Positions 56 to 35,533 are shown, counted from the first letter of the stretch. The stretch: 35,777 nucleotides of DNA from an uncultured virus (IMG/VR IMGVR_UViG_3300044612_002689) (IMGVR_UViG_3300044612_002689), one strand, 5' to 3'. Program-made: numbers and translations. Notes: generated by a model not told the origin, from the sequence alone.

Positions 56-397
56 TTACCATCTTCTAGATCGTCTTTCATTCATAACCGGAGGTGATGT
101 ACTAATTTTTTGCAAAACACAATTCATGAATTTAATTCCATCTTGTGGTGTTTTATTTAATTTAGATAATTCCGTACCACAAGCCATTAATTTCACTAAA
201 TCAGTTGGGATTTTTTTAGAAGTAATAACCCCCATACCTAATTCCTTACAAGTAGGAATTGGATCAAGATTATTTAATGATAATACTTCAGTTGCACAAC
301 CAATAATTTCTGTTGGAATATCGTTTTGATTTTCTTTAATTACTCGTTTAACAATACGAACTAGATCTGCTTCTGTTAATCTTACAATTTTTTTCAT
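56..397 (-). CDS. Small hypothetical protein with N-terminal MKKIVRLTExDL-type tag
   Basis: Start moved to ATG at 397 (MKKIVRLTEADLVRIVKRVIKE). TATTTAT motif on the minus strand at 413-419. Confidence 0.75.
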   Translation of the reverse strand: MKKIVRLTEADLVRIVKRVIKENQNDIPTEIIGCATEVLSLNNLDPIPTCKELGMGVITSKKIPTDLVKLMACGTELSKLNKTPQDGIKFMNCVLQKISTSPPVMNERRSRRW

Positions 398-461
398 ATT
401 AAGTTTTTTAATATAAATATATGAATTGAAAAAAAACAATAATTTCAGAATATTTATTATC

Positions 462-1916
462 ATGAATAATAAAAAACTAATTAAAGAAATTCAAAAAATT
501 AAAAATTGTTTTGGATTAAATTTGTTGAATGAAAGTGTGGGACCAGGCGATAAATTAATTTTGGGTGCGTTAGATGCATCAAGTACAGGACTTGTAAAAA
601 CTTTGGGTACAGAACTTGCAACTCAGATTGAAAATTCAATTTTAACCTCCGTAAAAAATTCAGAATTAATTTTGAATAAAATGGGAAAAAAAATTGGTGA
701 CAATGTAAGTTTTGATGATATCAAAACACTTTATGGTCAAACAACAAAATCTTCAGCCGCAGAAATGGTTTTAAAAGAACTAGGATCGGAAGGTTCAAAA
801 GTTTTGGATGATCTTTTGTTAAATAAAATTAATCCAAAAAATTTAACTGCTTTAGGAAGTTATGTTAAACAACTTGATAAAACTAATCAACAAGCATTGA
901 AAACAAGTTTACAAGACTTACAGACACAATTTAGTAAAAGTATAGATGATGAGGCGACTTTTGAAACTGCTTGTGAGGTAATGGAGGCTACAATTCCAAA
1001 ATTAAAAGAACAGTTAAAAACCATCGAAATGGATCAAACTCTAAAAGTAGATTTAGAGAGAGTCTTAGATAGTTTTCAAACACAAATTAATACTCATAAA
1101 TTTTCAAAAGAACTTTCACCTTCTTCAACACCTCAAGTAAAAAATGTTGAGCCTAGTATTGACGACTGGCCCAACATGACTTTTCACGAAAAACCAAGTT
1201 ATACCCCAGTAAATCTAAAAACTTATTCTACGACATTTTCGAATAATAGTTTCGATCCAGAATTAATTGATTTCAATAACATTAAATTTAAGGAAGATGC
1301 ATTCCCTATGGAATGGATACAAAGACTTATTATTCAAGATGCGGAATCAATTGAAAAGTGGGGGTTGAAAAATTGGTTGGAAACAACAATAATCAGATCG
1401 ATTGGTGCCGGACTTCAACTTTTAAAAAGCATAGGTTTAGATATGTCCCCGATTGAAAAGGAGGCGACAATCAGAGATGCTGCCGAACTTTTTCCAATAA
1501 CAGGATTCGAAAAGTTTGGTACTGATAATTTTCGAGATTTCATTATTAAAAAATATAAAGATAATACTTTAAGGATTAATACGTCACTTCCTCCAAGTGA
1601 TTTGGCAAATTTTGACCCACGATGGTCAAGTCCCTTTAGTTGGGATTTTTCTATAGAGCCACCGACAACAAACACAAAAAATCAGTTAAATTATAATCAA
1701 CTTCAAAATTCTCAAGAAATACAAAAACAACTAGACAAATGGGATAAGTGGTACGATATGCCCAAAGAGGGTGATTATAATTATAAAACATGGATGGACA
1801 AACAAAAGAAAGATATGGAAGATTTGAAAAATAAAGGATTTTATAATATCAATACACTTCCTGGTATGAATGAATCATTGAACAGGGAAATAAATAAAAT
1901 AAAAAAACTTTTGTGA
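462..1916 (+). CDS. Polymorphic family member 1 (shared N-domain, variable C-terminus), putative virion protein
   Basis: Start moved to ATG 462 after TATTTAT at 451-457. N-domain aligns with 1913..3481 and 21475..23103. Tag-like helices at both ends (LIKEIQKIK; MNESLNREINKIKKLL). Confidence 0.75.
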   Translation: MNNKKLIKEIQKIKNCFGLNLLNESVGPGDKLILGALDASSTGLVKTLGTELATQIENSILTSVKNSELILNKMGKKIGDNVSFDDIKTLYGQTTKSSAAEMVLKELGSEGSKVLDDLLLNKINPKNLTALGSYVKQLDKTNQQALKTSLQDLQTQFSKSIDDEATFETACEVMEATIPKLKEQLKTIEMDQTLKVDLERVLDSFQTQINTHKFSKELSPSSTPQVKNVEPSIDDWPNMTFHEKPSYTPVNLKTYSTTFSNNSFDPELIDFNNIKFKEDAFPMEWIQRLIIQDAESIEKWGLKNWLETTIIRSIGAGLQLLKSIGLDMSPIEKEATIRDAAELFPITGFEKFGTDNFRDFIIKKYKDNTLRINTSLPPSDLANFDPRWSSPFSWDFSIEPPTTNTKNQLNYNQLQNSQEIQKQLDKWDKWYDMPKEGDYNYKTWMDKQKKDMEDLKNKGFYNINTLPGMNESLNREINKIKKLL

Positions 1917-3481
1917 AAAAAAGAACACTTAACGAAGAATTAGAAAAAATATCCCAGATTTTTAATGTTATGGGAATGGGATTTGGAGTTATAAAAGAAT
2001 CGTTGACACCAGGTCCCGGACCTACCGCATTATCAATTTTGGATGGTGCAACTCCAGGTATGGTTAAAACTTTAGGGTCAGAAATTGCAAGTCAGATTGA
2101 AACTTCAATTTTAAACACCGCAAAAAATTCAAAACTTATAACTCAAAAACTTGGAAAAAATGTCGGTGATAATCTTACCTTTGACGATCTTAAAACAATA
2201 ACTGGTGGAAGTACCAAAAGTGAAATTGCAAGTAATTTATTATCGATTGTCGGAAAAAGTCAGGCAGATTCGATATTACAAGATGTTGCGGATATAGTTG
2301 GTAATAAAAATTTTAAAATATTAGAAAGAAAAATTGTAGGTCTTGAAAAGATAGATAAGCAATTACATGATAGTGTAAAAAAATTTTTTAATAGTGCTTA
2401 TTTTGATTTGAGTCAGGGTCGAATGACACAAGGAGCAGTTGACATTTTGGAAATACAACTACCAATTATTTTGAAAAAAGTTGAAGAAAGTTTTATATCC
2501 CCGGACCTTAAAGATTTCATTAAAGAAAGTTGTTACAACACCCAACTCCAGTTAAACACTTTAAAACTTCAAGGACAATCTTCACCTATTTCTCAAAACC
2601 TACCAAATATAGATTCAACAGATCCACAATCATATTTAAACAAATACACAAAAGAAGAATTAGAAAAAATTCACAACTCTTTTGGTTGGAAAACGATCCG
2701 TACTGGATCTGGGGTTTCTAGTGGATGGAAATTTCATGTCTTTGGTGAAGACATAAAAGATTTGGTTTATTTGACTGATGCACTTACACCTGTAATTGAA
2801 AAATATGGAGCACATGGTAAGGTTGGGGGAACTGGACATCTCTCATTAGACGCATTTAAACCAGGTGGATATCAATATGGAAAACAGGGGGTAACAATTT
2901 ATATTCCAGTAGATGTTATAAATAGTAATTTACAAAAAAAAATGTTCGAAGATATACAAACTGCCATATCTGGATATAAAAAGGGTGGTACCATTTCAGG
3001 GGATAAAGCCTTGACCCCCGCAATTCATTATAGATATGAATTATTGGGACCCATTGATTATAAAACTGGGATCTCAACTGTATCACCAGGAATAGATCCA
3101 ATAACAAAAAAACCACTTCCGTCCGATTACTCAAACATGTATTCTAAAAACGAAGGAGGTCCCTATAAACCAAATGATGTACCTGACATTTTTGATTTAC
3201 CACCGGTTTCAATTCAAACACCACCACAAAAAAATACGAATTTCATATCGAATGTTCTTGGTGATGATAGTCTTATTGACTGGTCTAAAATTACCAATGC
3301 AAAAAACTCAAATGATTATAATTCATTAATAAAACAAGCATTAGACACTGGAGAGTTTAAATACATATCAAGAGGGGGTTTTGAAAATTATGGTATTCCA
3401 GATTTCAGACAATATCTCAAAGACAAATTTATTGATGATCAAGGTTTAACTGGTAATCCAGGAAAACCAGTTCAATTTTAA
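1913..3481 (+). CDS. Polymorphic family member 2 with OspF/LanKC-like phospho-Ser/Thr lyase domain
   Basis: GTG start overlaps the upstream stop (GTGA). Shared N-domain, then GWKFHV...HGKVG...QYGKQGVTIYIP...GDKALTPAIHYRYE, matching the order of class III/IV lanthipeptide lyase motifs. Confidence 0.65.
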   Translation: MKKRTLNEELEKISQIFNVMGMGFGVIKESLTPGPGPTALSILDGATPGMVKTLGSEIASQIETSILNTAKNSKLITQKLGKNVGDNLTFDDLKTITGGSTKSEIASNLLSIVGKSQADSILQDVADIVGNKNFKILERKIVGLEKIDKQLHDSVKKFFNSAYFDLSQGRMTQGAVDILEIQLPIILKKVEESFISPDLKDFIKESCYNTQLQLNTLKLQGQSSPISQNLPNIDSTDPQSYLNKYTKEELEKIHNSFGWKTIRTGSGVSSGWKFHVFGEDIKDLVYLTDALTPVIEKYGAHGKVGGTGHLSLDAFKPGGYQYGKQGVTIYIPVDVINSNLQKKMFEDIQTAISGYKKGGTISGDKALTPAIHYRYELLGPIDYKTGISTVSPGIDPITKKPLPSDYSNMYSKNEGGPYKPNDVPDIFDLPPVSIQTPPQKNTNFISNVLGDDSLIDWSKITNAKNSNDYNSLIKQALDTGEFKYISRGGFENYGIPDFRQYLKDKFIDDQGLTGNPGKPVQF

Positions 3482-3967: not shown

Positions 3968-5020
3968 ATGGGAAAAAGATTTATTATAAGTGAAGAAGAA
4001 AAATCATCAATCAGGGGGTTATATCGTCTTGATGAGGAAGATACAACTAAACTTTGTACTGAATTCAATACTGAATCAAAAACACTAGTAGTTGATTATC
4101 AAGATATTTTGAACGCTTATTCAGCATCAACAGAAGAAGAAACATTCAAGATAATCAATACTAAGATAGAAGAGGTTGCTAAAACATTAGTTGATAAAGG
4201 TATCCCAGATAGAACCGCATGTGAAGCAGGATTAATATATATTAGACCCGGGTTCAAAGATAAAAAATATATGACAGTAGTGGATCCAAATTATCACACA
4301 ATATATTCTTTTGACCAAAATCTTAATGATGTTACCCCTTACTTAGATCCCAATCAAAAAAATCCTATACCAATTATTACCGGAAAAGAATCAGACTTGG
4401 TCCCAACAGGAAGAATAAAAGATTTTGTAAATCTTTCGCAATTTGACCAATACAAATGGGTAACGGCCATGAAAAAACTAAGTAAAAAATTTGAAGATGT
4501 TACCGATGAAGATTGGAAATCAATTACAGACGAAGATAAAAAAAATTATCCGGTAACAGTTAATGATCTTTTTTCAGTTTTGGGAAGTACAACAGTTTAC
4601 CCACAAATATTTTCTACAGAACCAGGAAAAATTAAGTTATATGGTGGAGATAAATATCCTGAAGGTAAAAATAAGTTTGACATTGCTTTTTTAAAGACTT
4701 TAAATGGAACACTCTTGTCGAATGCAATTCATAGAATGTTAAACAAACCAGAAAGAGTTCAAGCATTTGCAAACGCATTTAAAAGAACATCTAAAACAGT
4801 GGACGAACCATCAGATTATCTTAATTTAAGTCTTGGGTGTATCAATGTACCTTATAAAATCTATGACAATGAAACATTTAGAGAAATTTTAAGGAATTCA
4901 TGGATTTTTTATATTTCACCCGAAAAAGTTAATTACTATGTTCAATCGATTGAGCAAGTCATTGATAATCCAGAGAAATGTTATTCTCCGGATTCTTTGG
5001 GAGTTAAAAAAACTTCTTAA
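3968..5020 (+). CDS. Tagged protein with L,D-transpeptidase (YkuD)-like catalytic motif
   Basis: N-tag FIISEEEKSSIRGLY, then VVD..HTIY, PIITGK and AIH...LSLGCINV (His/Cys motif with longer than usual spacing). TATTTAT at 3956-3962. Confidence 0.55.
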   Translation: MGKRFIISEEEKSSIRGLYRLDEEDTTKLCTEFNTESKTLVVDYQDILNAYSASTEEETFKIINTKIEEVAKTLVDKGIPDRTACEAGLIYIRPGFKDKKYMTVVDPNYHTIYSFDQNLNDVTPYLDPNQKNPIPIITGKESDLVPTGRIKDFVNLSQFDQYKWVTAMKKLSKKFEDVTDEDWKSITDEDKKNYPVTVNDLFSVLGSTTVYPQIFSTEPGKIKLYGGDKYPEGKNKFDIAFLKTLNGTLLSNAIHRMLNKPERVQAFANAFKRTSKTVDEPSDYLNLSLGCINVPYKIYDNETFREILRNSWIFYISPEKVNYYVQSIEQVIDNPEKCYSPDSLGVKKTS

Positions 5021-5062: not shown

Positions 5063-6058
5063 ATGAGTAAGGGACAATTAATTTCTGAACAAGAAAAAAA
5101 AAGAATATTAAATCTCCACAAAAACTATGATTTCAAACCTTTAATAAAAGAATCTAGGTATGATGGTCAATTAGATGCAAATGGTTCATTCACAACAACA
5201 ACAGAATTCAAATTTATTATACTATCAATTCTTGATAAAAAATATAGTTTTTTAAATGGGAAAAGTTTCACAATTAAGGTCGGAAAAAGGATATATGCCA
5301 CTAAAGATCAAAAAATGAGATTTTACATCGGTAAGTATAAGGGGGTTAATTTATACGCAGATCTTCCTTGTCCTAAAATTTCTCCAATTTTAAATGAATT
5401 TGAATGGAATGTGATTGCTCAAGGAACAAGTGGACTTATTAATATTGGCAAAGGTAAGTCAGGATCAGGTGCACCTGGTTTACCTGTAGGTTTAAGAAGT
5501 ATGTTTTGTTGTGGTGATAAAATGAAAAGTTACACGGAAAGACAATATGCTGTTGCATACCCCAAACCAGGTGAAAAAGGATATTGTAATGATAAAAAAC
5601 GAACCAAAGGATGTAGTGATCAATGTAATGCAAAACCTTGTTTTCCAGGATCACCTTGTCAACAAGTACAAGGATGGTTTGTAGATGAAGACGGATGTGA
5701 GTTTAGAACTGGACCTGGTGGATTCGAAAATAAAAGTAAATGTGAAAAATGTTGTTTTGGTAGAGACCCTAAACCAGAACCAAAACCAGAACCTAAAAGG
5801 TGTATAGATGGTTCTAAACAATGTACAAATTTTAAATCTTGTGAGGGAAAAACTGTCTATGAAAGATGTGAAAAGTGTGAAAAAATAAAAGAAATACAAA
5901 GATGTCTTAGTAAAGTACCAGATTTTGGAGATATTTTGATTGATGGTAAATTTGGTTGTGAAACAGATCATCTTCTTAACAAAATTGGTTATACTCAAAG
6001 ACCAGTCACTGATGAAATGATAAAAGAACTATGTGATTCAGTTGTTGTCCGAGGATAA
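5063..6058 (+). CDS. Tagged Cys-rich protein with C-terminal peptidoglycan-binding-like domain
   Basis: N-tag LISEQEKKRILNLH, many Cys, PKPE repeat linker, and IKEIQRCL...IDGKFGCET resembling the PG_binding_1 DGxFGxxT motif. TATTTAT at 5044-5050. Confidence 0.6.
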   Translation: MSKGQLISEQEKKRILNLHKNYDFKPLIKESRYDGQLDANGSFTTTTEFKFIILSILDKKYSFLNGKSFTIKVGKRIYATKDQKMRFYIGKYKGVNLYADLPCPKISPILNEFEWNVIAQGTSGLINIGKGKSGSGAPGLPVGLRSMFCCGDKMKSYTERQYAVAYPKPGEKGYCNDKKRTKGCSDQCNAKPCFPGSPCQQVQGWFVDEDGCEFRTGPGGFENKSKCEKCCFGRDPKPEPKPEPKRCIDGSKQCTNFKSCEGKTVYERCEKCEKIKEIQRCLSKVPDFGDILIDGKFGCETDHLLNKIGYTQRPVTDEMIKELCDSVVVRG

Positions 6059-6124: not shown

Positions 6125-6421
6125 ATGAAGATAATAATTTCTGAAAAACAAGAAAAGATCATCAAAAATTATGAATTGATTAATTTTATAATTGACGAAA
6201 TATTGAATCAAAAAAATGTTTGTGAATATAAAGAAATGGGTTATTATGGATGGAATAAGTTTTTTAATGACGTAATTAACGAATCAATAATTAAACTTGA
6301 GGAATTAAGTGACGATATGGACACCAAAATGTCAATTTTTAGGTTTCTGACAAATGACTCGGAACATATTAAAAAATTTTATGATAAAAAAATTAAAAAA
6401 TGTAAAAATGGCAAAGGCTAG
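6125..6421 (+). CDS. Hypothetical protein with MKIIISEKQ tag
   Basis: ORF with tag. TATTTAT at 6114-6120. Confidence 0.7.
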   Translation: MKIIISEKQEKIIKNYELINFIIDEILNQKNVCEYKEMGYYGWNKFFNDVINESIIKLEELSDDMDTKMSIFRFLTNDSEHIKKFYDKKIKKCKNGKG

Positions 6422-7119: not shown

Positions 7120-7638
7120 ATGAAAAATAACCTTTTTGAAGTTGATAGATCCGAGAAAAATAGGATCTTAGAAATGCACACCAAAGCATCCAAATTGAAT
7201 TACCTATTCGAATCTGGAAACTTGATGGATTTGACAGTCCAGGACATTATCGAAATGATTCTTACTTGTTATAATCTTTCTGCCTTGAATTACAAATTGG
7301 CAGATTTCATTCCCGATTTAACTGACGATGAAAGAAAGAAATTTACCGATTTTGCAGATTTGGACTCTCAAATCATCACTACCGGTAGAGAAAATGGTTT
7401 TCCACAACAGTTCAACGTTCCCGGACAGGAAACAATGAATGGTTTTTGGAAAAACAGACTTGATATTCTCACAAACCCAGATTTAACAGATGAAGAAAAA
7501 TCAACTAGAGTTAACCTGGAAGATATGAAAACTCTTTATTCCAAAATTTCAGATTTAATTATGGGGTATGGGTTCAACGATTTCCCATCACTTCAGACTG
7601 CGGTTGATGAATTTATCAGCACAGTATCTTTAAATTAA
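7120..7638 (+). CDS. Hypothetical protein with EKNRILEMH tag
   Basis: N-tag LFEVDRSEKNRILEMH...YLFE|S. TATTTAT at 7097-7103. Confidence 0.7.
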   Translation: MKNNLFEVDRSEKNRILEMHTKASKLNYLFESGNLMDLTVQDIIEMILTCYNLSALNYKLADFIPDLTDDERKKFTDFADLDSQIITTGRENGFPQQFNVPGQETMNGFWKNRLDILTNPDLTDEEKSTRVNLEDMKTLYSKISDLIMGYGFNDFPSLQTAVDEFISTVSLN

Positions 7639-8048: not shown

Positions 8049-8330
8049 ATGAAAAAAATAACACTTAACGAAACACAGTTATTACAGTTAATTAAAAAAA
8101 TAGTTAAAGAGTCCAGAAGAGACCCTAGAGAAACAGAATCCATGAGACTTGATCTTGTGGATTCTGTTGTTAATAGGTTTAGTGAATATGGTGACGAGTA
8201 TTACGATGCACTAAAACAGTTCAATGAAGATTACCCACTCACTAAAATCAAGGTTTTATCACCAAGAGATTTGTACGAACCAGAAAGAGTTGTTCCTGGG
8301 GTAAAAACCACATTTGGAAAAGATTTCTAG
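8049..8330 (+). CDS. Hypothetical protein with MKKITLNETQL tag
   Basis: Tag ends IVKE|S. TATTTAT at 8027-8033. Confidence 0.7.
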   Translation: MKKITLNETQLLQLIKKIVKESRRDPRETESMRLDLVDSVVNRFSEYGDEYYDALKQFNEDYPLTKIKVLSPRDLYEPERVVPGVKTTFGKDF

Positions 8331-10599: not shown

Positions 10600-11139
10600 T
10601 TAGATACCTTTAATTAGATTAATGCATTGTTTAAGATATTCCTTTGCTCTTGCTGATGGTGTTAGATCGTCATCTTTAGATTGTAAATCAAGTACTTTTT
10701 CTATATCTTTGACTAACTCAGTGCCATGTTCATTTTCTTTATAAAGTTGTACAATTTTTTCCATTGCCGGTAAACATTGACCGTTTGTCTCATCAAAATA
10801 ATTTTTATTTCTGAATTTATTCAAATGATTCATCATCTCGTATGCCAGGTGAGTTCCACCATCTTTAATACTTTTATTAAGTCTAATATTATTCAATAAT
10901 CCTAATGAATCAACAAGATGACCAATTCCTCCACGTCTTTTTTGTATTCCAGGACCGTAAGTTATAAAATCATCACTTAATCCAGCAATTTCATCTAGAG
11001 GAAGTACATTTTCAGGAATACACCTTGCATTTGGTTTTTTCTTATCTTTTTTTGGTGATGATCCCACACTTTGATCTTCTAATATGGTTTGTTTGATCAA
11101 ACTAATTAATTCATTTTCCGTCAATCTAATTTTTTTCAT
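10600..11139 (-). CDS. Hypothetical protein with MKKIRLTENEL tag
   Basis: Tag ends TILE|D. Minus-strand TATTTAT at 11155-11161. Confidence 0.75.
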   Translation of the reverse strand: MKKIRLTENELISLIKQTILEDQSVGSSPKKDKKKPNARCIPENVLPLDEIAGLSDDFITYGPGIQKRRGGIGHLVDSLGLLNNIRLNKSIKDGGTHLAYEMMNHLNKFRNKNYFDETNGQCLPAMEKIVQLYKENEHGTELVKDIEKVLDLQSKDDDLTPSARAKEYLKQCINLIKGI

Positions 11140-13456: not shown

Positions 13457-14043
13457 TTTGAAAATTTATTGATTATTTCATCAACAATAACTCCAAGTTC
13501 TTGGTTTTGATTAGATCCCATAATTTGATCAATATCAATTTTATATTTAGAGTTATTTCCCATAAAATATAAATCCGGTATTACTGGTAACAAAAAAGAG
13601 TAACTTAATGGATCTTTCTTAAAAGTAATATCTAAACTCTTCATGAAGTTTTCAAAAGAATCTTTTAATGAGTTAAATTTTTCTAGACAAGTATCAAAGT
13701 AGTCAACCAGTTTTCTTTTTTTTATTTCTTCCAATAACTTTTTTATAGTTTTTAAATTTTTGGAAAAATAAGGAAGTAACGTGGTTGATATTATAAGACC
13801 AATATCTTCTTTTTTTAAGTTTTTTCCATCCTCATTCAAAAATTCATTTAAAAAATAAGACATTCCTCCAATTGCCATAGATTGGGATTTTAAATCATTT
13901 AAATCAACATCAAATATTTTTTCAGTTTTATTCATATGGGAAATAAATTTATTTCTGGCATTTTTGATTTTGTCAATAATAGTATTGATTTTTTCTTCTA
14001 ATAAAATCGTTTTATATTGTGATTCGGATACGACTAGTTTCAT
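13453..14043 (-). CDS. Hypothetical protein with MKLVVSESQY tag
   Basis: Tag ends ILLE|E. Minus-strand TATTTAT at 14051-14057. Confidence 0.7.
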   Translation of the reverse strand: MKLVVSESQYKTILLEEKINTIIDKIKNARNKFISHMNKTEKIFDVDLNDLKSQSMAIGGMSYFLNEFLNEDGKNLKKEDIGLIISTTLLPYFSKNLKTIKKLLEEIKKRKLVDYFDTCLEKFNSLKDSFENFMKSLDITFKKDPLSYSFLLPVIPDLYFMGNNSKYKIDIDQIMGSNQNQELGVIVDEIINKFSN

Positions 14044-16493: not shown

Positions 16494-16730
16494 ATGTTGT
16501 TTGATGACGTAATTAATATTTTGAATAAATATTCAAATGAGGATATTGAAAGTGAATTAGGTGAACAGGATGCACCTAGTGAACCAAGTGGGGGGTCGGC
16601 ACAGGGGTATCCCACTGTTACAAAATGGGAAACCGGTCTAACGAGGGGAGTTGCAAATACAATTGACGATAAAGTAACTTGGTCATCACTTTATAAAATT
16701 ACTAGAGGAAAAGCGAACACTTTACTATAA
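16494..16730 (+). CDS. Small protein with duplicated W..(x)TRGxANT motif
   Basis: KWETGLTRGVANTI and TWSSLYKITRGKANTL. TATTTAT at 16483-16489. Confidence 0.7.
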   Translation: MLFDDVINILNKYSNEDIESELGEQDAPSEPSGGSAQGYPTVTKWETGLTRGVANTIDDKVTWSSLYKITRGKANTLL

Positions 16731-18948: not shown

Positions 18949-21414
18949 ATGACAAACAAAAATATAAATTTATTATCTGAAATAAAAAAAATTCATGAGT
19001 TGATGAATTTGGACATTATATTAACTGAAACTAAATTAAGTCCAAAACAATTTCATAAAAATATTTTACTTGAGCAGGGGTCTGATAAAGAAGGTCCCTT
19101 AGGTAGTTTTGATTTTGGTACTTACGGTAAAATTTGGTATGTTAAAAAAGGTTTTAATGCATTTTATTTACCTGAAGGTAATTTAGATATTGGAAAATTA
19201 TTTGGTTTGGAAAATAAGCCCAACCATTTCAAAGACGAGTTTGGGTGGCATGAGGCTTACGTTAAAAAAAGTTGGGATGATTACGATATAACTGTTACTC
19301 AGAACTCTCCTGGTCCCGTACAAAACGATCCTTACAAGGAACTTAGAAAACAAGGAACCATAGTTAAAAGATATTACCCGGCCGATGATTGGCAAACTTT
19401 AGAATGGGTAAGAAAAAATAAAATACCTTATGCATTCAAAACAAGTGAGGGTAAGATGTTTGTTTTGGCAATTAAATTGGTGGATTTGGAAAAATCCTTA
19501 TTTCCGGAAGTTATAAGAAAAGACCAAGTTCCTTTGAAACCTATGGAAAAATCTAGAGGATGGAATATTGTAGTTCCAGGGATGGCAGCAACAAGTTCGA
19601 GGTTTGATTTGGGAAGTGCGTATTTTAATGTTGAAACTAACGAGTCTTACAACCAAACAGCACCTATTGTAGAAGATGATCCATCAACATTTGATCTTGA
19701 TACAAGAACTAATTTTGTAAAATTTATGGGTTCATGGCAAGGAATGTTGGCACAAATTGCGGCGAGTCTTGCAATTTACCTTGTGGCAAAAAAATTGGTA
19801 GTTTTAACAAGTTTTTCAACCGTAGCAGGTACTGAGGGAGCGATGGCATTTACAAGTGCAAATCTTAGTCCGGCAAACCTAAGATTAAGATTGGTGCTTT
19901 TTCAAACGATTGGTGAGATTGGATTAAATTCGTTTTTGGCTTTCAATTATCTTAAAGCGGGACCTGAGTACGAATCAATGGCATTTATAACAATGGCGTT
20001 TGCTGCTTGGCCTGCAATCTCGGCATATTGTCCTGGATTAAAAAACTTTTTGGGAACGGAATATTCTAACAAATCGATGTTAGAAATAATAGGAAAACAA
20101 TTAACAGAACAAGCATTGTCTGGGGTTGATTTGGGGTTATCCATGACATTACTTAAAGGATCAATGCAACCAGAAGAATGGGCGGTTTTATATAAATTCA
20201 TGGAAGCAATGACAAAACCTGAGTTACAAGCGGAAATAAAACAAGCGTTTAAGATGTTGTTTGAAACCGGAGAGACAGGATTTTATGGTCAAGTAAATAA
20301 AACTTTGGTATCGAATGTGACGGAAGAAGGATTAGCGATGCAAGCACTTAGACAAAAATACGCAAAAGTGTTATCATTAATTGATGGGATAAATGATGAA
20401 TTGGCAAAACCTAATGCAGGATTTTTATCAACGTTTACAAAATCTCTTGGAACGGTGGTTGCTTATCAAAAAGTATTAATTAATATTTATGATCGTTTTT
20501 CTTCTAAACCAGAGAATAAAGATAAAATTAATGACCAAACAGCAAAACAACACGCACAAAACTCTAAAGCGGCCCTTGATAAAAAGTATAGTGAATGTCC
20601 TGGGTGGGAAAAGAAAATAATGTCAGAAAAAGATGCTCAAGATGAATTTTCATTAAGATCAATGACATTTAGTGAAGACACATTAAAGAAATTATTTGAA
20701 AATGGTGTGTTTACCGATGAAGCAACAAAGGTATGGAAAGAAACGGTACTTCTACAGTCCCTTCTTAATTTAAAAAAGAGACAACAACAAGGAGGTCAAA
20801 AAGTGGTTGAATACCTGGAAGGTGTCAGTGGTTTATTAAATTATTTTAATAGTGATCTATGTTGGGAAACTGATGTTGTGTCAAAAAATCCTGATTTGGC
20901 AAATCAAATTTTAACAATTTGTGAGGAATCAGGATATGTTTTAACAGATGATGATGAGGCTTGTAAAAAGAAAATTGGTGGTAGATCAATTAATTGTCTT
21001 CCTTGTATTGCAAAATCTACAGATGTTAGAGAAGGTTATAAAAAGTACGCAAAGGGTGAAGTTGTTACAAATATAGAAAATCCTTTGAATAGACCTGTGG
21101 ATCCAAATGTGGTAAAACCAGTTGAGCCCAAACCAGAAGAATGGACCGGAACTAATTGGGAAAAAGTAACACAGGTTAAATATAATAGTTACCGTATACA
21201 ACCCCATAAATATGATGTATACAGTGCTGGAACTCCACCAAACGTTGTTTATTACGGAAAAATAAAACAAACAAATCAATTTAGTAATAATCCGAATCAA
21301 CAATATCCTTCAAACAATTCTCAGTTACAACAACCAGAAACTACTACTGAACCAAAAAAACCAGGTATAAAACAAAAATTAAAAGATAAATTTGGTAAAA
21401 GGATTGGAAAATAA
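18949..21414 (+). CDS. Large putative virion/ejection protein with central hydrophobic helices
   Basis: 821 aa. N-tag LLSEIKKIHELM...ILLE|Q. Hydrophobic block at about aa 262-360. Confidence 0.65.
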   Translation: MTNKNINLLSEIKKIHELMNLDIILTETKLSPKQFHKNILLEQGSDKEGPLGSFDFGTYGKIWYVKKGFNAFYLPEGNLDIGKLFGLENKPNHFKDEFGWHEAYVKKSWDDYDITVTQNSPGPVQNDPYKELRKQGTIVKRYYPADDWQTLEWVRKNKIPYAFKTSEGKMFVLAIKLVDLEKSLFPEVIRKDQVPLKPMEKSRGWNIVVPGMAATSSRFDLGSAYFNVETNESYNQTAPIVEDDPSTFDLDTRTNFVKFMGSWQGMLAQIAASLAIYLVAKKLVVLTSFSTVAGTEGAMAFTSANLSPANLRLRLVLFQTIGEIGLNSFLAFNYLKAGPEYESMAFITMAFAAWPAISAYCPGLKNFLGTEYSNKSMLEIIGKQLTEQALSGVDLGLSMTLLKGSMQPEEWAVLYKFMEAMTKPELQAEIKQAFKMLFETGETGFYGQVNKTLVSNVTEEGLAMQALRQKYAKVLSLIDGINDELAKPNAGFLSTFTKSLGTVVAYQKVLINIYDRFSSKPENKDKINDQTAKQHAQNSKAALDKKYSECPGWEKKIMSEKDAQDEFSLRSMTFSEDTLKKLFENGVFTDEATKVWKETVLLQSLLNLKKRQQQGGQKVVEYLEGVSGLLNYFNSDLCWETDVVSKNPDLANQILTICEESGYVLTDDDEACKKKIGGRSINCLPCIAKSTDVREGYKKYAKGEVVTNIENPLNRPVDPNVVKPVEPKPEEWTGTNWEKVTQVKYNSYRIQPHKYDVYSAGTPPNVVYYGKIKQTNQFSNNPNQQYPSNNSQLQQPETTTEPKKPGIKQKLKDKFGKRIGK

Positions 21415-21474: not shown

Positions 21475-23103
21475 ATGCAAAGAAATAGAAAAATGACACT
21501 TAATGAGGAATTTGCTCTTATGAGAAAAATGTTTCATAAAATGGGTGTCACAGAAGTTCTGAAAGAAAACAAAATAAGATTAAATGAATCATTAGGATCA
21601 GGTTTACCAAGTGTATTGGATGGGCTCACACCGGGGTCATCTGTTGCACTAATCGGTAAAACAGTTCTTCCTGAAATCGAGAATGCAATTTTGATGTCGG
21701 CAAAAAATAGTGATTTAATCATGACTAAACTAGGTAAAAAAGTTGGTGATAATTTGACATTTGACGATATAATCAGTGGTGGTTTGATGGGTACAACTAA
21801 AAGAGAAGTTGCACAAAGTATTGTAGAAGAGTTAGGAGAAAGTGGTGTTACCCTTATGAAAAATTTAGGAGATATTTTAGGAGGTGCCAACGTAACTTCA
21901 CTAAAAAATCAAATTGCTGAATTATCAACTGAACCTCAAAGACAGGTACAAAGTAAATTACAGAACATTCAAAAACAAATTGATGTTCCTGATCAGGCAA
22001 AAAAGGCAGCAAATTTAGAAACAGTCGCTGACTTATTACCTGGTTTAAGAAATGCAGTAGATAGTGATATAAATTTAACCGCAACTCAAAAAACCGCAAT
22101 AAACGAATTATTTGATTCACTTGAAGCCCAGGCAAATGCTTATAAAACAAAAAGTAGTGATGTCTTTGAACTAGATCCGGCAATTCAAAAAACAATAAAT
22201 GAATTACAGGAGGGAAATTATTCATCAATAAGAAATGTAATGAACAGTAATCCCGACGTGAAACTCAAGTTGTCCGATGGAGAAATCACGAGTTTGAAAA
22301 ATGCTGTTGATGAAATGAGTGATGAAGAAATCAATAAGGTATTTGATGACTTAGTGGTGCCTATATTAAAAAATGAAAAACCAAAACCCTCAAGTGGTGG
22401 AGGTTATTTGTATAGTGGTATTCCAATACCCCCGAATATAAATGAAAAAACAGATCAAATCATAACTGTGATTCATAAGATTATTGCGGGTATATTTGGA
22501 ATTGTCCCAGCAATTTTGAACGGACTTTTGGGAGCATTAAAAGGAAACACAAGAAAGACTATAGTGTGGATACTAGTAATAGCAGCCGTTTTGTATCTTG
22601 GATATGAAGTATACCAATATTTTGCCAACGGTGGGTTTAAACGAGATGTAAAAGATACTATTACCGCAGATTCAAAGGACGAAGATTGTTGCGAGGCAAT
22701 AATTGGGTATAATGACCTTAATAGTGATCAGCAAAAATTTGTTGTCGTTAAATATGGGTGTAAAGACACAAAAAACAACACTACGAATGGGGTTGCGTCT
22801 TTTGGGGTTGATGAAAACACGGGGTGTGTAATTGCTGTGAGAAAAGGTGGTACTTCAGAAAAATGGACAGTAAGTGCTGGGGGTGTCGGGGAACCATGCA
22901 GCGGAAATAACGTAACTCCACCACCAAACAATTCTTGTAAATGTACACTAGCAACTATGCAAGCGAGTCTTACTGCCGATGGAATTAATTATTCTAATGA
23001 GGCATTTGACACTACAAGTTGTACTGGTACTTACGATGAAACAGTAACACTTGAGGATGGTAATACTAAAGTGGTTAACCAAACATTTGAATGTGATAAA
23101 TAA
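21475..23103 (+). CDS. Polymorphic family member 3: shared N-domain, TM helices, Cys-rich C-domain
   Basis: N-domain aligns with 462 and 1913 (IENAILMSAKNSDLIMTKLGKKVGDNLTFDD). TM segment IVWILVIAAVLYLGY. TATTTAT at 21455-21461. Confidence 0.75.
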   Translation: MQRNRKMTLNEEFALMRKMFHKMGVTEVLKENKIRLNESLGSGLPSVLDGLTPGSSVALIGKTVLPEIENAILMSAKNSDLIMTKLGKKVGDNLTFDDIISGGLMGTTKREVAQSIVEELGESGVTLMKNLGDILGGANVTSLKNQIAELSTEPQRQVQSKLQNIQKQIDVPDQAKKAANLETVADLLPGLRNAVDSDINLTATQKTAINELFDSLEAQANAYKTKSSDVFELDPAIQKTINELQEGNYSSIRNVMNSNPDVKLKLSDGEITSLKNAVDEMSDEEINKVFDDLVVPILKNEKPKPSSGGGYLYSGIPIPPNINEKTDQIITVIHKIIAGIFGIVPAILNGLLGALKGNTRKTIVWILVIAAVLYLGYEVYQYFANGGFKRDVKDTITADSKDEDCCEAIIGYNDLNSDQQKFVVVKYGCKDTKNNTTNGVASFGVDENTGCVIAVRKGGTSEKWTVSAGGVGEPCSGNNVTPPPNNSCKCTLATMQASLTADGINYSNEAFDTTSCTGTYDETVTLEDGNTKVVNQTFECDK

Positions 23104-23131: not shown

Positions 23132-25672
23132 ATGCCATTTACAGAAGTAAAATGTAATTCAGAAGAAGCCAAATTGAAACTTAGTGGTTTCGAAAAAGTT
23201 AGCCAAGTAAAGTATAATTCCAAAAAGGTTGATCCCGCATATGAAACTAGAAAATTAGATTGCGTTAAGGGTGCAAGATATTTTATTAAAAAGAAATCTT
23301 CTCAAACTAAGAAGTACAAATGTAATGGTCAAAATTGTGTTCCGGATGTAAATGGACCATACACAACGTCAAATTGTGATGGAAAGTGTAAAGGATCAAA
23401 CCCAACTCCAACACCAAATCCTCCACAAAAAACAAAGTGTAAAAGTGGAAATTCAACAACCGGATTCAAAAATCAGGCTGAAGGGGATAGTTTTAGAGAA
23501 TTTATTCATAGATTTTATCCTGATGTTGCAAGTAAATATGATTTATGGATATCATATAGAAGATATGATAACTGCACAATAAGAGACGTATTTTATGCAC
23601 AAAATCTAAAAGACGAATTTAAAAGAAGTTATGGGGCTTTGTATAAACTTTACTTACAAAATCCGTCATTTGATCCAAATAATGCGAATACACCATCACA
23701 AAATAATCCAGAGGCTCAAAAGAAGGTTTTTGAAACCCTAATAGAAAATGGACAAATTACATCAAATGGGATTTTTGCAAAATTTGAGGGCAAAACAGTC
23801 TATATTACAAAAAATGATAAAGATGTCATTACAAAATATGATCCAAGTAAAGAGGTAAATTATTATCCGGTTACTAAAGATGAATTGACGGTCGAAAAAT
23901 TAAATGACAAAGATTTTGTATATTTTGTTCACTTTCCTTTAGTAGGTGATACTGGTCAATTAGGGCAACTCGTAAAAGAAAAAGATTTCAAAGGAGAAAA
24001 ATTAACAATTTTGGTAAATCCTAACTGGAAATGGTCTCCAAAGAAAAAAGTTGAACAAGTTACGTTTTATGAAAGTATCAGTAGAAGTTTAAAAAGGGCA
24101 TTAAAAAAAAAACTTCATGAACAAGTTTACAGTTTCTCAGCACCGTTTGTAAGTAATCAACAATCATCTATTAATTATTCTTTTCAAAACCCACAAAACC
24201 AAACTTTAAGTTCTTTTATGGGTTATAGTTTGAACCAAACGACACAAAATTTGAGTCAAACGGATATTCAAAAAATTGATAAACTCAAACAGGAGGCAAT
24301 TCAAATACTAACAAAATTAAGAGGATTAGCAACCAATCCTGATGATAAAAAACAAATTGATGAGGCAATCGCATTATTAAACTCAATTGATTCGTCACAA
24401 GTATGTACTCCCGATAATCAACAAAAAGTTATTTTAGGAAAACAACAATTGGAATTAATGAAATCAAAATTAACCGGATTTCAAAATGCTGCGATTGGAA
24501 AAGATGTTAATAGACTTATTCAAATAATGGATGAGGTAATTCAAATTTGTAAAAATCAAACACAAACTACCACTAATCAACCCACTACAAATCAACCTAC
24601 AACTAATCAACCTACAACTAATCAACCAACTACTAATCAACCAACTACCACCAATCAACAGACTACTGGTCAAGCAAGTGAATTAGATCAATTACGTATA
24701 CAATTTGGTTTTGTGACTGAGGATGGTAAACCTGTTTCCGCAAAAAATAGAATTATTCAAATGGATAAACTACCAAACTATGGGATAAATGGTCAGGGAA
24801 GTTTACAAAATGCAATTAATAATGGTGCGAGGTCTGATTATTTTCATATTTATAACAAATTAATCAAACTAGAGTTTGATGCCACAGAACAAGATGCACA
24901 TTTATTGAAGTATCCATCTAAAACCGAAACTGAGGTTTATGATGAACCAAAATACCAAACACAAACTACTGATATTACAAACACACCTGGAGGTCAAGGA
25001 GAAATGCAAGACAACTCCACAAATCAGACACAACAGACATCACAAGTTCAGGTAGGATCAGTCAAAAAAACAAGGGATGTTGTGAAGGGAGGTGACGAAA
25101 TTACTGAAAATAACTTCTCCGGATTATCTCCATTGACAGATGATGACTCAAAAATTAACTATAGAGAGACAAATTTTGGATTTTATTTGGGTAACAAATC
25201 TGCTTTGAAAATATTTGTTCTTAAGGGTAGTGAATCGTCAATCTCATCAGGTGGTTGTACTTGTGAATGGGATGATGTAAGAGCAATTGAAGAGTTAGAA
25301 AAATATATTGTTGAGGCTTTAACTTCTGATGGAGGAAGGTATCAAGGAAATAAATGGAAAAAATTATGTTCATGTTACCTTAAAGGTAGATTCGATAGTT
25401 TTGTCAATGGTACTTTGAAAATTGATCTTTCGGATTTAGCAACAAGATACGATCTATCACAAGAAGAGTTTGGTAGAGCGGCCGGAAAAAGACTTTCGTG
25501 GAAAGAAATTAAAGAACTGATTCAAACTGGTCAAACTGGAAATTTAAAACTTAAGAGTAGAGATTATAAAGATGTTGACTTTGGAGAATTAAATTGTCCT
25601 TGTGAGAGAAGTGGAACAATGAATGAATCCAAGGTTTCTAGATTAAGAAGAAGAATACTACAAAATCTCTAG
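23132..25672 (+). CDS. Large putative virion protein with Cys-rich N-region and TTNQP repeats
   Basis: 846 aa. Internal tag FYESISRSLKRALKKKLHE|Q and C-terminal MNESKVSRLRRRILQNL. Confidence 0.65.
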   Translation: MPFTEVKCNSEEAKLKLSGFEKVSQVKYNSKKVDPAYETRKLDCVKGARYFIKKKSSQTKKYKCNGQNCVPDVNGPYTTSNCDGKCKGSNPTPTPNPPQKTKCKSGNSTTGFKNQAEGDSFREFIHRFYPDVASKYDLWISYRRYDNCTIRDVFYAQNLKDEFKRSYGALYKLYLQNPSFDPNNANTPSQNNPEAQKKVFETLIENGQITSNGIFAKFEGKTVYITKNDKDVITKYDPSKEVNYYPVTKDELTVEKLNDKDFVYFVHFPLVGDTGQLGQLVKEKDFKGEKLTILVNPNWKWSPKKKVEQVTFYESISRSLKRALKKKLHEQVYSFSAPFVSNQQSSINYSFQNPQNQTLSSFMGYSLNQTTQNLSQTDIQKIDKLKQEAIQILTKLRGLATNPDDKKQIDEAIALLNSIDSSQVCTPDNQQKVILGKQQLELMKSKLTGFQNAAIGKDVNRLIQIMDEVIQICKNQTQTTTNQPTTNQPTTNQPTTNQPTTNQPTTTNQQTTGQASELDQLRIQFGFVTEDGKPVSAKNRIIQMDKLPNYGINGQGSLQNAINNGARSDYFHIYNKLIKLEFDATEQDAHLLKYPSKTETEVYDEPKYQTQTTDITNTPGGQGEMQDNSTNQTQQTSQVQVGSVKKTRDVVKGGDEITENNFSGLSPLTDDDSKINYRETNFGFYLGNKSALKIFVLKGSESSISSGGCTCEWDDVRAIEELEKYIVEALTSDGGRYQGNKWKKLCSCYLKGRFDSFVNGTLKIDLSDLATRYDLSQEEFGRAAGKRLSWKEIKELIQTGQTGNLKLKSRDYKDVDFGELNCPCERSGTMNESKVSRLRRRILQNL
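24569..24661 (+). repeat. 15-bp coding tandem repeat (TTNQP x5 + partial)
   Basis: ACnACnAATCAACCn units with synonymous variation. Confidence 0.9.
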
Positions 25673-31416: not shown

Positions 31417-31959
31417 ATGAAAAAAGTAATTAGACTTTCAGAATCTCAACTTCGAAATATCGTTAAAAAGGTAATTTTAGAAATTGGTGGGTATGATGAC
31501 CCGTTTGTTATGGCTTCACACGGAAGACATGTTTTTAGTAATTCATTAGAAATGATAAGTGAATTATCTTTGATGATGGCAAAAATAATTTCCTTATTAC
31601 TGGATACAGACTTCGATAATGTGGAAAAGAAAGAGTTTTTTGAGTCGATCGCAATGAAACTAGAACGAGTAATTTTTAGGTTGGATAAAATACTAGGAGA
31701 TTTTACTGAGGATGAACTCAGAGAAAAATCCAAAGTTTTAATCAAAAAACTTGGAAAATTAAAAGATAAATTTATCATGCTGGATCAAATGGATGTTTCA
31801 GATTATGAGTCTTACAATATTGATTTTAATTATTTGGTTGAAGAAACTTCATCGATTTTAGAGTTTTTAAGTGATTTTTCCGGTTCATTAAGAAGAACGG
31901 TAGATACTTTTAGTGATAGGTTTAACCGAGACAATGACCCCAATTTCGGATTTAATTAA
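31417..31959 (+). CDS. Helical hypothetical protein with MKKVIRLSESQL tag
   Basis: Tag ends VILE|I. TATTTAT at 31404-31410. Confidence 0.75.
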   Translation: MKKVIRLSESQLRNIVKKVILEIGGYDDPFVMASHGRHVFSNSLEMISELSLMMAKIISLLLDTDFDNVEKKEFFESIAMKLERVIFRLDKILGDFTEDELREKSKVLIKKLGKLKDKFIMLDQMDVSDYESYNIDFNYLVEETSSILEFLSDFSGSLRRTVDTFSDRFNRDNDPNFGFN

Positions 31960-33893: not shown

Positions 33894-34382
33894 ATGAATA
33901 TTTTTATTTTAGATTACAACACGAAAAAATGTGCTCAATATCATTGTGATAAGCACGTAGTAAAAATGATCCTTGAAACAGCACAACTTTTATGTGGTGT
34001 TCATCATATGACCCCCCAAGTTACCCCTCAAGTTCCCTACAAGTTATCTCACAAAAATCACCCCTGTGCGATTTGGGCTCGAGAATCACTATCTAATTAT
34101 CTTTATCTTTGTGATCTCGGATTGGAGTTGTGTAAAGAGTATACTTATCGTTACGGTAAACGACACAAGTCCCAACAAGTTATTGAGTGGTGTATGATTA
34201 ACAAACCACAAATACCGGACATTGATTTTACAACTCCTCCTAAAGCAATGCCAGATGAATACAAAGTTATCGATGTGGTAGAATCTTACAGAAATTACTA
34301 CATGGGATCGAAAAAGAATTTTGCCGTGTGGAAAAATAGAAATATACCTGAGTGGTTTTCAAAGAATGAAGTATTTATGTAA
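33894..34382 (+). CDS. Pyrimidine-dimer DNA glycosylase / endonuclease V (DenV)-family protein
   Basis: MNIFILD...HCDKHVVKMILETAQLL...HKNHPC..W...EYTYRYGKRH...AMPDEYK...YRNYY. Confidence 0.8.
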   Translation: MNIFILDYNTKKCAQYHCDKHVVKMILETAQLLCGVHHMTPQVTPQVPYKLSHKNHPCAIWARESLSNYLYLCDLGLELCKEYTYRYGKRHKSQQVIEWCMINKPQIPDIDFTTPPKAMPDEYKVIDVVESYRNYYMGSKKNFAVWKNRNIPEWFSKNEVFM

Positions 34383-34384
34383 AT

Positions 34385-35533
34385 ATGAAATTAGTTTATC
34401 CATTATCTAAAAAAGGAACTAAGACCTCTGGATTTGGTCCTAGATGGGGAAAACATCATAATGGTATTGACATTGCCATACCTGATGGTTCTGATGTGAT
34501 TTCAGTTGCAGATGGTGAAGTTGTTAGATCCGACATGAGAAATAAACGTGGTTATGGTAATTTTATAATAATCAAACATAATGTTGATGGAGAAAATTTC
34601 TATTCAGCCTACGCACATTTAACTCAAAGACTTGTTGATGTGGGTGATAAAGTTAAACAGGGTCAAAAAATTGCCGAATCTGGTGGTGGACAAGGTTTAG
34701 AAGGTGGTGGTGGTAAGTCAACTGGGCCACATTTACATTTTGAAATTAGAAAATCAGAATCTGGAAATTGGGTAAATCCTGAGAAATATCTATCTGGGGC
34801 GGAAATAGTAAGTGGTGAAATCGGTAATAAAGAGACAGTCACAATGACCGTAGCACAAAAGAAAAAAGTTCCAAAAATGGAATCTAAGACTTTTTTTTCT
34901 GGAGGAAACCCAATAAAAATTATATCAACACCAAGTGATCATGCCAAAAGATCCACACCAGATTGGTCATCCAGACATGCTTGGGATATACAAGCACCAA
35001 TAGGCACTTCAGTTTATTCTTTGACACATGGAAAAGTGGCAAAAAAACACGAATCTAGTAAAAAGAAAAAAAATATTTTCGGGACTCAGTTGTCCATTTC
35101 TGGTGAAAATGGTGATCCAAGTGTTTTTTACACACATTTGGATTCTGTAAAGTTAGAACCCGGAGACAAAGTAAAACCTGGTGATTTCATTGGGAAAATA
35201 ACAGAGTGGCCTTCCTATCCAAGTTCAAGCCACGTACACATAGGAACGGATCAAGGAAAAGATATTTTTGAATTTATGGATAAGGAGGGTAATATCAAGA
35301 ATGCTCCAGAAGTACCTTCAGAAGAAGAAGCACCAGAACAAGTAGAGTTCAATGTAGTAAAAGTTGATAAAGAAAAAATAAAAAAGGCATTAGAAGATTT
35401 TTTTTCAACCGGAACTAAAAAACTTGATGATATTGAGGCAGAATTAAACAAACAGAACGCCACAATGTATCCCAACAAAAAAATTTCAGAAGAAAAAAAT
35501 AGAATTCTGGATATTTTTTCAAAAATTTTATAA
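34385..35533 (+). CDS. Tandem M23 peptidase (peptidoglycan endopeptidase) with C-terminal tag
   Basis: Domain 1: HNGID...YAHL...GPHLHFE. Domain 2: AWDI...YTHL...HVHIG. C-terminal ISEEKNRILDIFSKIL. TATTTAT at 34372-34378. Confidence 0.88.
   Translation: MKLVYPLSKKGTKTSGFGPRWGKHHNGIDIAIPDGSDVISVADGEVVRSDMRNKRGYGNFIIIKHNVDGENFYSAYAHLTQRLVDVGDKVKQGQKIAESGGGQGLEGGGGKSTGPHLHFEIRKSESGNWVNPEKYLSGAEIVSGEIGNKETVTMTVAQKKKVPKMESKTFFSGGNPIKIISTPSDHAKRSTPDWSSRHAWDIQAPIGTSVYSLTHGKVAKKHESSKKKKNIFGTQLSISGENGDPSVFYTHLDSVKLEPGDKVKPGDFIGKITEWPSYPSSSHVHIGTDQGKDIFEFMDKEGNIKNAPEVPSEEEAPEQVEFNVVKVDKEKIKKALEDFFSTGTKKLDDIEAELNKQNATMYPNKKISEEKNRILDIFSKIL

Follow-up and report, generated by a model that had tools for sequence, protein, structure and literature searches.

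Why would dozens of mostly unrelated proteins of a single uncultured phage carry the same few short helices at their ends? The question is raised by a stretch of 35,777 nucleotides, hereafter the window, which is the minus strand of positions 63941-99717 in the 187,384-bp IMG/VR virus record IMGVR_UViG_3300044612_002689. A sequence-only reading of this stretch had described three related terminal tags (types A, B and C) on about 20 proteins and had taken them for a system that addresses cargo to the virion, after the short capsid-targeting sequence (CTS) of phage T4. Our analysis leads us to favour a reading of the same kind, in which the tags would be portable prohead-addressing propeptides, that is, a T4 CTS expanded and diversified. 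We put the probability of this at roughly 0.5.

The tags recur far above chance. For the 45 proteins of the window, each compared with 1000 residue shuffles, the type A regular expression matched 4 proteins and nothing in any shuffle, type B matched 4 against a shuffle mean of 0.03, and a loosened type C expression matched 3 against a mean of 0.005; all these window matches are N-terminal. Real proteins thus far exceed shuffled ones, and types A, B and C can be accepted as recurring terminal tags whose extent is larger than first supposed. For the whole record, a crude caller (ATG only, at least 50 residues, greedy overlap removal) gave 264 open reading frames (ORFs), a few of them spurious, and tag profiles were scored on these and on 20 shuffled proteomes, with the proviso that seeds match their own profile by construction. 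The type A profile reached at least 15 bits in 13 ORFs and in no shuffled proteome; type B reached at least 10 bits in 7 (all of them also above the 15-bit mark), again with none among the shuffles; and type N reached at least 10 bits in 22 ORFs against a single shuffled match. Altogether 58 of the 264 ORFs were assigned a tag, 40 by regular expression and 18 by eye: 13 of type A, 14 of a short type A (As), 16 of type N, 7 of type B, 5 of type C and 3 of type D. Neither type N (MNLQESIRRILREE) nor type D (RFKQLLESxLGNVKPLLTE) is present in the window.

Tags at C-termini are fewer. The helices that had been listed there do translate as claimed, but the enrichment of the class over shuffles is only modest: a strict pattern was found 8 times against 2.7 +/- 1.7, and 8 was reached by 1 of 200 shuffles. 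Five cases are convincing, four of them within the window and two with tagged orthologues in a relative. An internal helix had also been proposed at window position 23132, where no recognisable tag was found. Internal copies exist elsewhere in the record, in a tandem array of about ten type N genes (genome C1:128147-136481 (-), locus L009) with near-identical first codons (ATG AAC CTA CAA GAA). The array proteins at genome 129125, 131610 and 132446 each contain a second, internal copy of the tag, and these look like fusions of adjacent tagged genes.

The tags are portable between bodies and usable at either terminus. Compared by BLAST at E < 1e-3 with the first 32 residues removed, the bodies of the 58 tagged proteins formed 55 groups. 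Only three type C paralogues, which group together, and one pair were related to one another; in this pair an As-tagged body corresponds to the segment of an N-tagged protein behind its internal N-tag copy. The claim that the bodies are mostly unrelated therefore stands for the set as a whole but fails for type C, where three of the five proteins are paralogous over about 190 residues behind the tag. Orthologues collected from 80 loci around the capsid gene allowed us to see tags change on a given body. For one orthologous body, RYMFFSNLEQMRRQ.., we have 30 distinct sequences, of which 20 bear a type N tag and 10 a type A tag. The two types share the core [DN]LxRI[IV]K[KR]V[IL]xE, and type N is type A minus its first strand, the KKIIRLTE strand that precedes the helix. 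In the family of the gene adjoining the capsid gene (37 distinct sequences), the C-terminus is tagless in 9 and ends in a helix tail in 18, some of which are a full type A; 10 of the 37 lacked the anchor used for this C-terminal count. Protein P0022 has the same tag on a different body. Since the tag is kept while the body is replaced, selection must act on the tag itself. Within type A, 46% of same-residue codon pairs use different codons, and divergence is 0.54 at the third codon position vs 0.33 at positions 1-2. This synonymous variation places the constraint on the peptide and not on DNA or RNA.

The module is also widespread. Searched against 1.84 billion entries, a profile built on the 13 type A tags picked out 8,013 representative proteins (E <= 0.001), and the best 150 of these hold 203 instances, 137 of them N-terminal. 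The ten type A clusters that we looked up are all metagenomic, and their listed members are unnamed or 'hypothetical' except for three with stray automatic labels. Four related jumbo genomes were searched, and each contained 9-14 type A copies. When the first 40 residues of a single tagged protein served as query in a word-indexed search, only 43 candidates were returned, mostly near-identical orthologues.

All tags are basic amphipathic helices of 13-22 residues, and in type A the conservation ends abruptly at a glutamate. Among 32 orthologues of the product of window gene 10600-11139 (alignment A5), only M1, E8 and E21 are invariant within the first 39 residues. The P3 position of each Glu is always aliphatic while P2 is free, and behind E21 an indel-rich linker leads to a highly conserved body. 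In the tag-swapping family (alignment A6), the terminal Glu (E14) is the sole invariant residue ahead of the body. Across the top type A database matches, column conservation is 98% for E9, 96% for L12, 96% for E22, 90% for L7 and 87% for I20, and it collapses right behind E22 into a stretch rich in D, E, N, Q, S, G and P. AlphaFold2 (AF2), run on the 32-row alignment of the 179-residue protein, predicts a helix at residues 8-22, then residues 23-34 with a predicted local distance difference test (pLDDT) score below 50, then a compact body at pLDDT 85-90. This pattern of helix, disorder and body, together with the alignments, describes the module as a helix, a flexible linker and a cargo.

The junction itself resembles the T4 one where the proteins belong to the head module. 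In 27 of the 37 sequences of the capsid-adjoining family, the N-terminal tag is followed by [LIVM]xE|(A/V/I/M)(T/D)(S/T/G), mostly E|ATS, and the two conserved tagged families of the head module end their tags in ..[IL]xE|ATS and ..[IVL]xE|AP. With exceptions, then, a short terminal segment ending in L/I-x-E stands beside the body, as in T4. The sequence-only reading had an (I/L)-x-E behind its tags, which is borne out as an invariant aliphatic-x-Glu at the helix/body junction of both alignments, though not for all C-terminal tails, as discussed below. It is a further possibility that both type A glutamates are cleavage sites flanking an excisable helix. We hold this idea to be weak, because the first Glu has a structural explanation (below) and many C-terminal junctions have no aliphatic P3.

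The record encodes a T4-type head module, namely capsid protein, prohead protease, portal and large terminase. The protease (genome 45951-46688; PF03420 Peptidase_S77, 80.6 bits; phrog_207) is 33% identical to T4 gp21, whose H85 and S140, which we take to be the catalytic residues, align to its H95 and S158. The capsid protein is of the Gp23 family (PF07068, 248.9 bits) and the portal is T4-type (PF07230, 247.8 bits); the genes are ordered portal, two small genes, protease, scaffold-like gene, capsid. A homologous propeptide site is present as well, since HLINE|ATSEG of the capsid protein aligns with the T4 gp23 cut site FLTE|AEIGG. Comparable starts in T4 (NC_000866) are MKTYQEFIAE|A (IPII, IPIII), ..STITE|A (IPI), MLKEQLIAE|A (gp22), MAKINELLRE|S (gp24) and MEGLIE|A (gp67), where the cuts were placed according to the L/I-x-E rule and the propeptide length (10-19 residues) given in PMC9026906. 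Passages of that source describe T4 gp21 as cutting after L/I-x-E, T4 head propeptides as 10-19 residues long, CTS-like sequences on varied internal proteins of T-even phages and Alt as processed at both ends, and raise the idea that the CTS may have evolved as a means of loading diverse proteins (PMC9026906).

The capsid protein (genome C1:42155-44017 (-), locus L006) has further peculiarities. Compared with T4 gp23 it has about 15 extra N-terminal residues, about 22 residues ahead of the shared motif, and a large insertion of about 200 residues. Its residues 1-25, MGALLESGLVGNIGLKHLKVIKEDT, are near-identical in 72 distinct relatives, with one Leu/Ile change. We considered whether this N-terminus (MGALLESGLVGNIG..) is type D-like and dropped the idea, as the capsid protein was outside the top matches of a gapless profile. 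A complex prediction of the protease (alignment A4) with a type A tag (alignment A1) scored 0.00 in both runs, had no controls, and counts neither way.

Tagged genes and head genes appear to share expression signals. The 8-mer ATATTTAT is the commonest upstream 8-mer of the record, and 54 of its 91 occurrences lie 8-45 nt ahead of a same-strand start, vs 9/91 for the reverse complement. It is found ahead of the capsid, scaffold-like, portal and terminase genes and ahead of no nameable nucleotide-metabolism, repair or glycosyltransferase gene. It stands upstream of 25/58 tagged vs 40/206 untagged genes (Fisher p = 4.6e-4). In the window, copies of the form ATATTTAT(A) are 11-30 nt upstream of start codons, with a T-rich stretch ahead of the motif. 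The motif is probably a late promoter common to head genes and many tagged genes.

The nature of the bodies is for the most part elusive, nearly all of them being orphans in PHROGs and Pfam. Those that can be recognised are an M23 peptidase with a C-terminal tag (window 34385-35533), VanY and PG_binding_1 domains on proteins with type B and As tags, a DUF2237 body, and a sub-threshold ART-PolyVal match behind a type N tag, which recalls Alt, the packaged ADP-ribosyltransferase (ART) of T4. Such cargo fits proteins acting on arrival in the host. Of the varied payload originally suggested, wall-active enzymes and a peptidase were thus recovered, but no lyase was found, and membrane proteins are minor, given that a strongly hydrophobic 19-mer occurs in only 4/58 tagged proteins. 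PADLOC gave two marginal matches only; a PDB sequence search with the ART-like protein gave nothing better than E 0.04, and the ESM Atlas had no usable match for a tagged protein of 846 residues. For the AF2 model of the 179-residue protein, Foldseek against PDB reached at best E 0.068, and a wide VIA-align search reached at best Z 7.6 with generic helical repeats, so that no fold was assigned. Tagged genes also turn over quickly: 11/58 have a homologue in relative G001, vs 94/206 of untagged genes (p = 2.3e-4). The variable internal-protein loci of T-even phages resemble this turnover.

Taking these observations together, we hypothesize that the helix docks its protein inside the assembling head, on a conserved component that would be either scaffold/core or the capsid protein's inner face. 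A gp21-family serine protease would then cut behind the invariant Glu of the aliphatic-x-Glu at the helix/body junction and free a rapidly changing set of cargo proteins, most of them small (wall-active enzymes, the ART-like protein, many orphans), which would exit the head together with the DNA. The testable sequence predictions of a T4-style loading and maturation tag fit, including protease, capsid site, junction Glu, linker, swaps, shared upstream motif and cargo; those of a lyase and a membrane payload do not. We favour prohead addressing over its rivals because none of them explains together the junction Glu, the E|A junctions of the head module, tag swapping and the shared upstream motif.

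Several points weigh against this hypothesis. At least 58 cargo genes would surpass any documented case, and the count rests in part on a crude ATG-only ORF set and on 18/58 tags assigned by eye. The tagged bodies are acidic (median pI 5.3), unlike the basic internal proteins of T4. The junction is not uniform: P3 is Val or Met in 7/27 rows of the tag-swapping family, and 12/18 C-terminal helix tails of the capsid-adjoining family join via K/N/Q-x-E-S, with no aliphatic P3. Furthermore, [LI]xE is frequent in this AT-rich proteome (14.6 per 1000 residues). The type A segment L7-T8-E9-x-[DEQ]-L12 also has the look of a helix N-cap with a hydrophobic staple, and on that reading its first Glu is explicable without a protease. 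Finally, the tag is absent from every cultured phage searched. The type A profile (alignment A1) had no match in T4 (E <= 1), Flavobacterium phage immuto or Microcystis phage Mel-JY01, and in tblastn searches of 50,697 GenBank phage records at E <= 10 with a 27-residue type A and a 25-residue type D tag, one query had no match and the other two chance Microviridae matches. The same profile found three weak matches in the 484-kb record LR756508.1, the best at E 1.7e-5.

Other explanations account for part of this pattern. The tags might be docking or oligomerisation helices for a common hub unrelated to the capsid, never cut, the partner being an AAA+ chaperone-like protein, a host complex or other tags in a bundle. 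The polar residues of the tag are strongly conserved over thousands of clusters, which argues for a specific protein partner, and the N-cap and staple account for L7, T8, E9 and L12 with no protease involved. Internal tag copies are tolerated, and the genome encodes a conserved 684-residue AAA+ protein (phrog_4871, 'ATP-dependent protease'; genome C1:57307-59879, locus L007) beside an Hsp20-like gene, kept in relative G001. What docking leaves unexplained is the terminal Glu with its aliphatic P3, the one invariant junction feature in both tag types, as well as the T4-like E|A of the conserved head-module members and the upstream motif common to tagged and head genes; we consider it rather unlikely. 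Another thought is that of membrane-targeting amphipathic helices, comparable with the terminal helices of MinD and FtsA, that would keep wall-active or late proteins at the inner membrane. The helix is indeed cationic and amphipathic, with hydrophobic L12, I15, V16, I19 and I20 set against R14, K17, R18 and K21, and several bodies act on peptidoglycan. Membrane-targeting helices are typically placed at either terminus, as the tags are. Yet helices that bind lipid form a class of loose sequence that keeps amphipathicity, not near-invariant polar residues (T8, E9, S10, D11 and E22 at 82-98%). An invariant Glu closing a membrane helix is unexpected, and an inner-leaflet anchor does not bring a peptidase to the wall. 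Membrane targeting is, in our judgement, improbable.

It may also be asked whether the tags have any addressing function, or are instead the conserved first element of a fast-diverging multigene family that arose by duplication and gene conversion and whose bodies drifted beyond recognition. Tandem arrays, such as that of about ten type N genes at genome 128147-136481, where 18% of same-residue codon pairs differ, speak for such a history, as do the three true paralogues of type C. We nonetheless give it little credence: the bodies include unrelated known folds (M23, VanY, DUF2237, ART-like), one orthologous body swaps type A and type N, tags occur at C-termini, and the retention of the tag despite replacement of the body indicates selection on the tag. 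Very improbable, lastly, is a constraint on the nucleic acid, either a start-region signal for bS21-modified ribosomes or a recombination cassette. The tags begin at ATG, bS21 is encoded within the head module, and selective late translation has been proposed for bS21 phages in the text of Chen et al. 2022 (PMC9723584). Against it stand the excess of third-position divergence in type A noted above, a conservation that spans 22 codons and stops at a defined residue, and the presence of the same module at C-termini and internally.

If prohead addressing is correct, the closest known system is the T4 CTS of IPI, IPII, IPIII and Alt. In both phages a short terminal helix ending in aliphatic-x-Glu is found on unrelated, fast-evolving, non-essential-looking proteins, in genomes that share a gp21-family protease, a Gp23-family capsid protein and a T4-type portal, and C-terminal propeptides are described for T4 as well, on Alt (PMC9026906). 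The differences are considerable: the tags described here have no sequence similarity to MKTYQEFIAE, are 13-22 residues long, come in at least five classes of which two are interchangeable, and occupy N-terminal, C-terminal and internal positions. They are found on at least 58 genes per 187 kb, vs a handful in T4, and in thousands of metagenomic clusters; their bodies are acidic, and the system is known from sequence alone. By protease family, head type and junction motif, we see about even odds that it is T4 CTS-like.

In the phiKZ-like jumbo phage SPN3US, many head and ejection proteins are described as cut by a gp21-related protease after a Glu-ending motif, and their propeptides have been proposed to be prohead-targeting (PMC7411985). 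The long N-terminal propeptides of gp47, gp53 and gp54 and the C-terminal propeptide of the protease gp245 are similar in belonging to a jumbo phage and in Glu-motif processing. They are, however, 111-130 residues long and protein-specific and form no short shared cassette; eight cleaved head proteins are reported for that phage (PMC7411985). A conserved basic helix, ..FLRMKDLMKKL, closes the scaffold-like protein of our phage and is similar to the C-terminal tags. Short terminal peptides or helices that suffice to address unrelated cargo into an HK97-fold shell are also known as the cargo-loading peptides of encapsulins and as the coat-binding helix at the C-terminus of phage scaffolding proteins; unlike the proposed tags, they are usually C-terminal and are not removed by a protease. 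Polymorphic toxins, with their N-terminal trafficking domains, and phage 'polyvalent proteins' combine a constant addressing module with variable effector modules, and the sub-threshold ART-PolyVal match of one tagged body is a link to the latter. There, however, the modules are whole domains on large multidomain proteins, whereas here a helix of 13-22 residues is found on mostly small single-domain proteins. A full-text search for the motif strings found no published description of the tags. The text of Chen et al. 2022 (PMC9723584), supplements aside, does not mention them, nor does it contain 'motif', 'propeptide' or 'internal protein'; 'N-terminal' appears twice, about the bS21 helix.

The tag coordinates given in the sequence-only reading all translate as claimed, and the window inventory is as follows. 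Type A is represented by MKKIVRLTEADLVRIVKRVIKE at 332..397 (-) (profile 43.6 bits), in a gene whose true start is 397 within an ORF listed as 56-463; by MKKITLNETQLLQLIKKIVKE at 8049..8111 (+) on a 93-residue orphan (32.2 bits); by MKKIRLTENELISLIKQTILE at 11077..11139 (-) on the 179-residue protein (tag profile and AF2); and by MKKVIRLSESQLRNIVKKVILE at 31417..31482 (+) on a 180-residue orphan (38.4 bits). The short form As is found as MKIIISEKQEKIIKNYE at 6125..6175 (+) and as MKLVVSESQYKTILLEE at 13993..14043 (-). Type B tags, all on the plus strand, are ..FIISEEEKSSIRGLY at 3968..4024 (20.1 bits), ..LISEQEKKRILNLH at 5063..5119 (25.1 bits), ..VDRSEKNRILEMH at 7120..7179 (24.7 bits) and ..VSKAEKNDILDQH at 14962..15021 (23.1 bits); the C-terminus of this last protein is a tag-like helix. 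The type C leaders, also on the plus strand, are MNNKKLIKEIQKIKNCFGLNLLNE at 462..533 on a 484-residue protein; KKRTLNEELEKISQIFNVMGMGFGVIKE at 1913..1999, which requires a GTG start and whose body is paralogous to those of the genes at 462 and 21475; MTNKNINLLSEIKKIHELMNLDIILTE at 18949..19029 on an 821-residue orphan; ..MTLNEEFALMRKMFHKMGVTEVLKE at 21475..21567 on a 542-residue protein; and a weak one assigned by eye and added to the earlier list, MELKKLIKERLLE at 16730..16768 on a 721-residue orphan.

Four C-terminal tags lie on the plus strand of the window: MNE|SLNREINKIKKLL at 1866..1913; LEE|SLNRTKEMFNKFKSYN at 15529..15585, whose G001 orthologue ends in LQE|QINKTLDMFKRFKKY; MNE|SKVSRLRRRILQNL at 25619..25669 on the orphan of 846 residues; and ISE|EKNRILDIFSKIL at 35483..35530 on the M23 peptidase, whose G001 orthologue is likewise helix-ended. 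Copies of ATATTTAT(A) are found on the plus strand at 450, 3955, 5043, 7096, 8813, 12821, 14069, 14942, 16482 and 31403, and on the minus strand at 413-420, 11155-11162, 14051-14058, 30454-30461 and 30777-30784. Those at 450, 3955, 5043, 7096, 14942 and 31403 precede the tags starting at 462, 3968, 5063, 7120, 14962 and 31417, respectively, and the minus-strand copies at 413-420 and 14051-14058 precede those starting at 397 and 14043.

The source is a T4-like, bS21-encoding freshwater jumbo phage, uncultured. The record has a CheckV completeness of 64%, a GC of 0.31 and no end repeats found. Its bS21 gene (PF01165, 33.1 bits; genome C1:47261-47413 (+), locus L006) lies between the minus-strand portal and protease genes and is thus antisense within the terminase/portal/protease/capsid block. 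An opposite-strand bS21 gene within the head module is described in the text of Chen et al. 2022 (PMC9723584) as a signature of bS21-encoding freshwater Bacteroidota phages, and because of this arrangement we place the phage in the bS21 phage clades of that study. Capsid proteins related to this one are encoded by more than 855 contigs in IMG/VR. For the 80 best of them, identity over the best aligned segment is 61-99%, and their contigs are up to 321 kb long. The closest cultured relatives, Flavobacterium phage immuto and Microcystis phage Mel-JY01, are distant, at a capsid identity of about 41%. A Bacteroidota host is supported by a small protein encoded at window 7672-8007 (+), with a signal-peptide-like N-terminus and a CHU_C type IX secretion sorting domain (PF13585, E 4.5e-9), which makes it a phage-encoded candidate substrate of the host type IX secretion system.

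Four metatranscriptome libraries from lakes yielded contigs at least 99% identical to the window, with depth in 24-29 of 30 bins of positions 1-20000, and single contigs span the tagged genes at 7120-8739. Since expression cannot be ranked from contigs and RNA libraries may contain DNA, this tells us of the presence of the phage in the libraries only. Elsewhere in the window, three adjacent glycosyltransferase (GT) genes at 25695-29471 (+) encode a GT2 protein, an RgpF rhamnan-synthesis-like protein and an 806-residue protein with two GT domains; further sugar-modifying genes are found at genome 13.7-28.9 kb. A tRNA-Arg gene (anticodon TCT) lies at 29509-29582 (+), and a pyrimidine-dimer DNA glycosylase-like gene (PF03013, E 6e-6; phrog_624, E 4e-62) at 33894-34382 (+), directly upstream of the M23 peptidase gene. 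At the contig end (genome C1:1-4042 (-), locus L004) is a giant protein with collagen-like GTNGTSG repeats, probably a fibre; a 338-residue ORF that overlaps it in a different frame of the same strand is probably spurious.

As a tentative extension, and one that we hold to be doubtful as it stands, these phages may possess a protein-export code of their own. A few position-independent, excisable address cassettes (N-terminal, C-terminal or between fused bodies) would let any newly acquired gene enter the head once it picks up a cassette, giving a renewable arsenal of dozens of effectors injected with the DNA, and the tag classes (A/N, As, B, C, D) may set different docking sites, copy numbers or fates. 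If prohead addressing is true, the T4 CTS principle, known for a few proteins of one phage group, becomes a modular system over a fifth of a genome. There would then be a sequence rule with which to read the injected proteome from metagenomic jumbo-phage genomes, a rule that would cover more than 8,000 'hypothetical' protein clusters and draw attention to a large set of candidate effectors for host takeover and anti-defence. A cassette of 13-22 residues would also be a compact handle to package foreign proteins into T4-like capsids. Should the docking take place elsewhere, the tags would nonetheless reveal a conserved hub around which an abundant freshwater clade organises much of its accessory proteome.

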